From contig CAZHVK010000004.1 of NCBI GenBank assembly GCA_964535955.1, forward strand, positions 70,222-134,221: a stretch of DNA of 64,000 bases, read 5' to 3'. This document shows, in pieces, positions 22,612 to 45,908 of the stretch. Each line of letters starts with the position of its first letter. Position 1 is the stretch's first letter. The notes beneath the pieces were generated by a model that was given only the letters and a program-made list of their open reading frames with translations, was not told where the DNA came from and did no database searches. The translations under genes and the position numbers were made by a program. This DNA comes from an uncultured Methanosarcinales archaeon (GTDB lineage Archaea > Nanobdellota > Nanobdellia > Woesearchaeales > CAXGTL01).

Positions 22612-22620
22612 AAAAACAAA

Positions 22621-22730
22621 ATGAAACTGGCGTCTGTAAGACAAGTGAGTACCCACACAGATCATAAGAAAACAAGGACTTTCAATACAACATTAGAAAA
22701 ACATTGAAAGTACGAACGAGCCAGTTTCAT
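22621..22730. ncRNA. putative structured element, copy 1 (homologous to 45795-45908)
   Basis: Terminal IR ATGAAACTGGC/GCCAGTTTCAT; inner hairpin ACTTTCAAT/ATTGAAAGT; core CGTCTGTAAGACAAGTGA and GAACGAG shared with copy 2. Confidence 0.6.
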
Positions 22731-22820
22731 GATCCTTCCATACCTACCCCCAACCTCCCACCCTAGCAAGGTATAAGGTAAATAAAGGGTAAATAAAATA
22801 AAACAAAAACCAAAAGAAAA

Positions 22821-45794: not shown

Positions 45795-45908
45795 TGCTGA
45801 AACCCTCGTCTGTAAGACCAGTGAACCAAGGTTAAACCTCGTCAGATGACATTGGTGCTCCATTTGATTTTGCATAGATTGGAGCAGGTGAACGAGTGGG
45901 TTTCAGCA
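45795..45908. ncRNA. putative structured element, copy 2, in the 5' leader of the VIT-vWA-TFB operon
   Basis: Terminal IR TGCTGAAACC(C)..CTCGT / ACGAG..GGTTTCAGCA; hairpin TGCTCCA/TGGAGCA; core CGTCTGTAAGACCAGTGA and GAACGAG. Confidence 0.6.

Follow-up and report, generated by a model that had tools for sequence, protein, structure and literature searches.

The window, by which we mean the whole 64-kb stretch of archaeal DNA analysed here, contains two sequences of about 110 nucleotides that share a core and complementary ends while carrying stems of different sequence, and it raises the question of whether these are functional RNAs, such as ribozymes or riboswitches, or copies of a mobile element that acts as folded single-stranded DNA. 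Both sequences lie on the + strand (Table 1), and most of the anatomy given in the initial annotation was borne out. The shared core CGTCTGTAAGAC(A/C)AGTGA occupies positions 22631-22648 and 45807-45824, the termini of both copies pair (TGG/CCA in copy 1 versus CCC/GGG in copy 2), and GAACGAG is common to the two. The internal hairpins, ACTTTCAAT/ATTGAAAGT in copy 1 and TGCTCCA/TGGAGCA in copy 2, are unlike in sequence and sit at equivalent positions. When up to three mismatches are allowed in the 18-nt core, the window yields two matches against 0.09 expected, without a third site, and two matches were reached in one of 100 shuffles. As initially described, the neighbours of copy 1 are an ABC ATPase (PF00005) and an ABC-2 permease (PF06182); the copy begins 8 nt downstream of the ATPase gene and stands upstream of two ABC-2 permease genes. 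Copy 2 sits in a divergent gap, flanked by a VIT-vWA gene on the − strand and by a small gene on the + strand.

Table 1 Features of the two element copies in the 64-kb window (positions are those of the window; CM, covariance model).
Feature	Position	Strand	Details
Copy 1, complete element, interior type A	22621-22730	+	CM R1 match 22620-22731, 107.6 bits
Copy 1, P1 5′ arm (terminal inverted repeat)	22621-22631	+	pairs with 22720-22730
Copy 1, P2 hairpin GTCT-GTA-AGAC	22632-22642	+	second pair covaries
Copy 1, conserved 5′ core AAGTGA and P3 5′ strand GTA	22643-22651	+	GT pairs with AC 22716-22717; tandem G·A/A·G opposite 22714-22715; P3 pairs with 22711-22713
Copy 1, P5 mini-hairpin (T-C-ATAA-G-A)	22662-22669	+	lone covarying pair, 4-nt loop
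Copy 1, P4 hairpin	22679-22710	+	CTTTCAA, 18-nt A/T-rich loop, TTGAAAG
Copy 1, P3 3′ strand TAC and conserved 3′ core GAACGA	22711-22719	+	
Copy 1, P1 3′ arm	22720-22730	+	pairs with 22621-22631
Copy 2, complete element, interior type B	45795-45908	+	CM R1 match 45796-45907, 95.4 bits
Copy 2, P1	45795-45805 with 45898-45908	+	
Copy 2, P2	45808-45818	+	
Copy 2, P5	45839-45846	+	
Copy 2, P4	45857-45863 with 45880-45886	+	
Copy 2, 3′ core	45887-45895	+	

The initial description of a two-copy element holds for the window and fails for the genome. The source genome (G000, Woesearchaeota; 1.49 Mb in 31 contigs, 29.7% GC) contains 24 matches to the core motif at up to two mismatches, versus one match for a reversed control, and these include GCCT...AGGC variants that compensate for GTCT...AGAC. 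A covariance model, R1, built from an alignment of 27 clean copies (A2), finds 56 copies in this genome at E ≤ 0.01, 55 of which span the whole model. The element is 100-143 bp long and non-coding, and the highest pairwise identity among the 56 copies is 0.85. Every match below 77 bits that was inspected carries an insertion, and no decay was seen. A C-rich tract (19 C in 30 nt) directly follows copy 1 at window positions 22735-22770, and a second one follows the copy at G000:C1:4153; since a strongly C-rich neighbour is found in only two of the 56 copies, an association of the element with a C-rich mini-repeat was rejected.

The initial annotation had proposed a covariance-model search for homologues, and it returned many, in relatives as well as in the source genome. 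Among 41 relatives, R1 detects 14, 21 and 18 copies in three congeners as well as members in two other families. In two order-wide draws of 151 genomes each, which overlap and both include the source genome, the element is present in at least seven genomes (first draw) and at least five (second draw), these counts being minima with 25 candidates scored per genome. In total, at least 13 genomes with eight family labels carry it: four of the source genus and nine genomes of seven other families of the order. The distribution is nevertheless patchy, as most sampled genomes of the order are without the element. A core-pattern search of viral contigs returned 14 loci, none of which is a member; the best scores 20.9 bits, has a broken closing helix and lies in sequence of 57% GC.

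How such a family spread is most readily seen in another family of the order. In the genome G240, five 143-bp copies are near-identical exactly from arm to arm (the arms being 18 bp long), while their flanks are unrelated. Nine arm-to-arm units of G240 and G235 are flanked by 9-bp direct repeats, exact in seven units and with one or two mismatches in the other two, whereas unrelated 9-mers average 6.2 mismatches. P1, the closing helix, can thus be identified as the terminal inverted repeat of a MITE that duplicates 9 bp of its target. Flanking repeats of at least 8 nt accompany 11 of the 56 source-genome copies (null expectation 4.7%; lengths 6-17 nt), a sparseness that fits old insertions. 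Empty sites complete the picture. The ABC ATPase/permease junction orthologous to that of copy 1 is without the element in the congeners G001, G002 and G003, the spacer in G002 being 8 nt, and contigs of a related population from three metagenome runs also lack it. Likewise, the site orthologous to the copy at C1:40062 is empty in relatives, the sites of three clustered copies at C1:159-161 kb are empty in G002 and G003, and, conversely, relatives carry copies where the source genome has none. The element displays inverted repeats, a fixed-length target duplication, no coding capacity, small size, many copies and presence/absence variation, as expected of a MITE.

The 9-bp staggered cut suggests that the mobilizing transposase is a DDE-type enzyme. 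We found no multi-copy transposase family in an all-against-all comparison of source-genome proteins, in which the small paralog groups look like TrmB-type and Lrp/AsnC-type regulators. Transposases of the IS256, ISL3, IS1595 and TnpB types are absent from all five carrier genomes searched, and IS4/IS5-type genes occur among the searched carriers only in G240 and G094, with ends unrelated to the element. An autonomous partner, sought as arm pairs 1-2 kb apart, was not found in G240 or G235, the assemblies being fragmented metagenome bins of the kind in which repeats are often lost. Y1 transposases (PF01797) have no match in the source genome and are present in G240, G235, G249 and G094. They were rejected as the mobilizer: 56 of the 151 genomes of the order have Y1, with no enrichment in the genomes found element-positive (2 of 7) over the others (54 of 144).

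Covariation shows that the fold of the family is conserved. In A2, RNAalifold predicts 28 pairs, 24 of which show compensatory double changes. In an alignment of 98 copies from six genomes, aligned to R1 (A3), 96.9% of the pair cells are canonical versus 69.1% in shuffles, 27 of the 28 pairs have changed on both sides, and compensatory cells number 773 versus 238 in shuffles, none of 500 shuffles reaching the observed value. When the partners are shifted by one to three columns, 27-44% of the cells remain paired.

The fold is asymmetric and consists of five helices. P1, the closing helix, has 12 pairs in the model and arms of 11-20 bp; all 12 pairs have changed on both sides and 95.7% of their cells are paired. 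P2, a hairpin of 4-5 bp, has a GUA(A)-type loop, and its second pair is C-G in 75 copies and U-A in 19; in other genera it retains a 4-5-bp stem with a GUAA, GUAU or GUUA loop. It is followed by a CA junction and then by a G-U/A-C step with tandem G·A/A·G pairs, which leads into P3, a helix of 3 bp (four of the five pairs counted as helix 3 show double changes). P5 lies in a variable stretch and is a lone covarying pair that closes a G-U-N-A loop. The P4 hairpin has a stem of 7-9 bp and a loop of 12-20 nt; all of its seven pairs show double changes, and 98.2% of the cells are paired. A conserved GAACGA precedes the 3′ arm of P1. The interior occurs in two types, A and B, which differ in the sequence of P3, P5 and P4 and are equal in layout. 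Copies 1 and 2 are of different types. The CAGAT that the initial annotation listed among their common elements is not a feature of the family; the conserved motif of the middle region is instead the P5 pair with its loop (U-A 14, C-G 12 and G-C 7 in type A; C-G 30, U-A 9 and G-C 2 in type B), and the 2-bp P5 is the only consensus helix that RNAalifold places there.

Both strands of copies 1 and 2 fold better than their shuffles (z of −3.0 to −4.3), so that minimum free energy alone does not single out a strand. The substitutions do. Across the 98-sequence fold, G·U/U·G cells outnumber A·C/C·A cells 41 to 10 (p = 1.5e-5). Of the 98 copies, 80 have a sense strand that is the more stable of the two with DNA parameters, and 63 with RNA parameters. 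The window copies thus fold on their + strand. A conserved fold, specific to one strand, is strongly supported.

These data bear directly on the simplest account of the family, according to which the fold is incidental to an ordinary palindromic MITE and the apparent conservation reflects the recent spread of a few masters. The covariation of P1 could indeed arise from the need for matching inverted repeats. Furthermore, MITE transcripts are described as generally folding stably in a 2024 review (PMC10969869), and a 2024 survey (PMC11602168) counts "a Woesearchaea genome" among those archaea in which automatically detected MITEs are densest. Yet P2, P3, P4 and P5 covary independently of the inverted repeat, and about 97% of the pairs are intact although the source-genome copies are at most 85% identical. 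Compensatory swaps, moreover, distinguish orthologous copies; G001 and the source genome, for instance, differ by two such swaps in P4. As this account also leaves the strand-specific G·U excess and the polarity described below unexplained, we consider it very improbable.

The orthologues also explain the pattern of replaced stems that first drew attention to the locus. In one orthologous pair, the arms, P2 and the cores are identical, and the interior is of type A in one species and of type B in the other, which implies that interiors are exchanged between copies.

We then turn to whether the folded strand is used as RNA. All 56 source-genome copies are intergenic with genes called crudely as ATG-initiated ORFs of at least 70 amino acids. 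Of these, 21 lie between two genes on the strand of the element, ten between two genes on the opposite strand, 20 in divergent and three in convergent gaps, and two at contig ends. At the gathering threshold, Rfam 15 has no match anywhere in the 64-kb window, not even a tRNA, and with E-value thresholds the best scores around both copies are 17-18 bits against thresholds of 110-153, so the comparison with known RNA families suggested initially, which covers hammerhead, twister, pistol, HDV, riboswitches and C/D sRNA among others, finds none that matches the element. A self-cleaving ribozyme or a riboswitch would be in keeping with the conserved junction and its unpaired purines, and the UGA...GAA arrangement may resemble the hammerhead core; the position corresponding to hammerhead A15.1, however, is a C in our reading. 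Considering (i) the lack of an Rfam match and (ii) the presence of 56 copies in every intergenic context and orientation, including antisense to both neighbours, nothing supports such a function, and we regard it as hardly credible. The two options of the initial annotation thus fared differently: the mobile element stands, with its inverted repeats, target duplications and empty sites, and so does the one-strand fold, whereas the ribozyme or riboswitch is without support.

A broader RNA reading deserves more weight. The family could comprise small structured RNA genes of about 110 nt riding on a MITE, their RNA being read from nearby promoters or by read-through, acting in protein binding or regulation, and spread by the DNA vehicle. 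The tandem G·A pairs within a three-way junction, the GUAA-type, GNRA-like loops of P2 and P5, the lone covarying closing pair and the one-strand G·U excess are classic features of RNA, and these RNA-like motifs keep the RNA reading alive. Copies have also stayed intact at orthologous sites across species, although identity between the flanking genes is no more than 75-86%. TATA-like boxes are most frequent 21-30 nt upstream of the 5′ arm (18 matches in two 5-nt bins), but a mirror-image peak lies at 18-30 nt on the downstream side, on the opposite strand. This symmetry fits a preference for certain targets rather than a promoter, and the unit itself contains no conserved promoter. Ten copies, furthermore, lie antisense between two genes. 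A terminator role was considered and rejected, since T5 and A5 runs beside the element, found at 6 and 5 of 28 copies, respectively, show only a mild excess over a background of about 7%.

A further peculiarity of the family is its orientation in the chromosome. The GC skew was decomposed into a component that follows the coding strand (about 0.2) and one that is independent of genes. In 45 of the 51 source-genome copies with data, the folding strand is the one with negative gene-corrected skew. For the other five of the 56 copies, where one gene strand is available, the one-strand skews appear to point the same way. Orientation is uniform across contigs in which the gene strands are mixed, with 0 plus and 15 minus copies in C1 and 6 plus and 0 minus in C4. 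Among 51 loci of congeners, 35 fit the polarity rule, 4 violate it, 11 are ambiguous and 1 is unmapped. The rule also holds in G249 and G094 at loci with both gene strands available, and the polarity is seen in at least four families.

This polarity is not a general property of RNA genes, as the 16S rRNA gene, a single data point, lies on the G-rich strand, with a polarity opposite to that of the element, and the few tRNA genes found by ARAGORN are mixed, without polarity. The element is in this respect unlike a stable-RNA gene family. As a side observation, ARAGORN reports only 11 tRNA candidates in the whole source genome.

The asymmetry would reflect replication. The only Cdc6_C match, at G000:C3:95209-95478, has negative gene-corrected skew on both sides, without a switch, and a possible skew switch at the end of contig C16 is based on two genes. 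As the skew does not switch at the sole cdc6 gene, the folding strand may be assigned to either the leading or the lagging strand. One copy of the element and an intron-bearing tRNA-like sequence are located less than 1.5 kb upstream of cdc6.

Mapping of the flanks of congener copies onto the source genome gave ten well-supported orthologous pairs with both flanks collinear (the pair of L237 of G002 and C1:40062, with one flank mapped, was left out of the count). In seven pairs from G002 and G003, the skew of the flanking genes differs by at most 0.07; six of these copies have the same orientation and one, in G003, is inverted without a change in asymmetry. In the three pairs from G001, the asymmetry is reversed (skew differences of 0.24-0.33), and all three copies are inverted. 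The inverted G001 copies are 0.70-0.86 identical to their orthologues when reversed versus 0.57-0.65 when compared directly, and one pair has a nested insert in common, by which they are clearly the same elements. The reversal is not confined to these sites: 8 of 11 informative loci or syntenic blocks of G001 have reversed gene-independent skew, with differences of 0.15-0.33 (L036, L041, L209, L210, L212, L213, L215 and L216), and most of the G001 chromosome may be replicated in the opposite direction, while the skew of G002 and G003 agrees with that of the source genome. Orientation thus follows asymmetry after insertion, which points to in-place inversion between the arms combined with either selection or an orientation-dependent rate of inversion.

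The orientation and its reversal weigh against RNA genes carried by a MITE, which would explain neither the tracking of strand asymmetry nor the flips. We therefore view that reading as a real but lesser possibility, and prefer a role at the level of DNA for a unit that lacks a promoter of its own.

The same observations raise the prospect that the elements have been domesticated as a polarity signal of the host, their one-strand fold being read by the replication, repair or segregation machinery and the host keeping them intact and correctly oriented. Such a signal would amount to a structured version of polar motifs or single-strand initiation sites. The occurrence of the polarity in at least four families, the flips that follow a reversed asymmetry and the lack of decayed relics among the low-scoring matches inspected would all be expected of it, as would the occupation of sites in several of the four congeneric species (C1:9672 in four, C1:4153 in three and C2:124116 in three). 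A signal needed by the host, however, agrees less well with an element that most genomes of the order are without, whose copy number varies from 14 to 56 among congeners with many species-specific insertions, and which is represented by young, identical, actively spreading copies in G240. As patchiness, copy-number differences and young copies fit a selfish element better than an essential signal, we think domestication unlikely.

Combining these findings, we propose, with moderate confidence, the following model. The element is a non-autonomous, MITE-type transposon that generates a 9-bp target duplication and would be moved by a transposase supplied in trans. Its asymmetric interior, comprising P2, the tandem G·A junction, P3, P5 and P4, is the fold of one strand, kept intact in every copy. 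This strand coincides with the C-rich strand of the chromosome, its orientation being locked to the gene-independent asymmetry. Copies at fixed sites turn round where the asymmetry has reversed, for which recombination or template switching between the P1 arms would be the simplest mechanism. The polarity may be kept either by selection or by orientation-biased inversion. The fold would act while single-stranded in a process tied to replication, most likely not as a trans-acting RNA but as folded ssDNA that affects the survival or copying of the element at the fork. Against the model, polarity has no obvious reason in a cut-and-paste transposon whose ends are symmetric, and the known ssDNA transposons (IS200/IS605, REP/RAYT) generate no target duplication.

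In a stronger form of this model, which we consider unlikely, the element would be more than a parasite, namely a structured single-strand signal that is read one way by the replication machinery, spread by transposition and kept in register with replication by in-place inversion between its own arms. If true, the family would represent a new kind of chromosome-polarity element that also records, from within the genome, changes of replication direction in DPANN archaea.

The family shares features with several known systems and coincides with none. Like the prokaryotic MITEs QMITE2 of Coxiella, Correia/CREE of Neisseria, ERIC, RUP and BOX, it is small, non-coding, multi-copy and intergenic, with terminal inverted repeats, a short target duplication that fades with age, a presence that varies among relatives and a stable fold. 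Unlike these, it has an asymmetric five-helix interior with conserved unpaired bases and covariation helix by helix, its copies remain intact despite their age (at most 85% identity), its orientation is locked to strand asymmetry and flips in place, and no parent insertion sequence was found for it in the genomes searched. IS200/IS605, PATE and REP/REPIN-RAYT elements depend on a folded single strand, are coupled to replication and have an orientation bias relative to the fork. The folded single strand is a feature in common, but these elements are without terminal inverted repeats or target duplication, both of which are present here. Assignment to the REP/REPIN-RAYT or PATE type is contradicted by the 9-bp duplications and by the results for Y1, which is absent from the source genome and not associated with the element across the 151 genomes.

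Integron attC sites and the sso/ssi sites of plasmids and phages measure about 60-200 nt, keep a one-strand structure rather than a sequence, with a few conserved unpaired bases, and have one working orientation relative to replication. The element resembles them in the conservation of one-strand structure rather than sequence, but it is dispersed by transposition instead of being arrayed or plasmid-borne and has no linked integrase or rolling-circle replicon. KOPS, Chi and the archaeal ASPS likewise have an orientation tied to strand asymmetry across whole contigs; these, however, are short double-strand words, whereas the element is a 110-nt folded mobile unit.

MITEs are usually regarded as decaying junk in random orientation. 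The family departs from this view by its one-strand multi-helix fold, by a chromosome-wide polarity rule in several Woesearchaeota families and by its in-place flips; MITE-type elements are not known to turn in place when the strand bias is reversed. It offers a testable link between the single-strand structure of a mobile element and replication, in archaea whose replication is hardly known and in which no switch of the strand bias coincides with the expected origin. Past reversals of replication direction might be traced through the element, and its covariance model is a ready annotation tool for copies that standard pipelines miss. Full-text searches of the literature returned neither this fold nor a replication-polar MITE for DPANN archaea. 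The supplements of PMC11602168 may list the 110-nt family, and the review PMC10969869 treats general features of MITEs without using the words orientation or replication.

Several smaller observations concern variants and companions of the element. Two longer variants in G240, at C87:285-525 (L186) and C40:1-188 (L183), have the same arms with a structured expansion of about 55 nt replacing the P2 loop; one longer G240 variant is 241 bp long and has a 9-bp flanking repeat with one mismatch. Two 49-bp arm-to-arm units of the same genome (C57:20017-20065 and C75:10095-10143; L184 and L185) contain NN and are flanked by 9-bp repeats; they are probably assembly gaps within collapsed copies and not real mini-elements.

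A second, tiny repeat has a unit of about 53 nt composed of two similar hairpins (TG-TCAnRAAT..ATTYnTGA, a 6-nt palindromic linker, the second hairpin, CA). A regular expression finds it at 24 loci in the source genome, none of them in the window: C2:773-822 (L002), C1:38013-38062, C11:216-265, C20:7412-7459 and 20 others. No canonical bulge-helix-bulge motif, with two 3-nt bulges 4 bp apart and exon-intron pairing at both junctions, could be drawn by eye from the junctions of the nested units, which do not form an obvious archaeal intron of that kind. Eleven of the 24 loci are nested within copies of the 110-nt element, where they occupy at least four positions (after P2, in the P2 loop, near P5 and in the P4 loop), and other loci lie within repeated sequence on C8, C9, C15 and C17.
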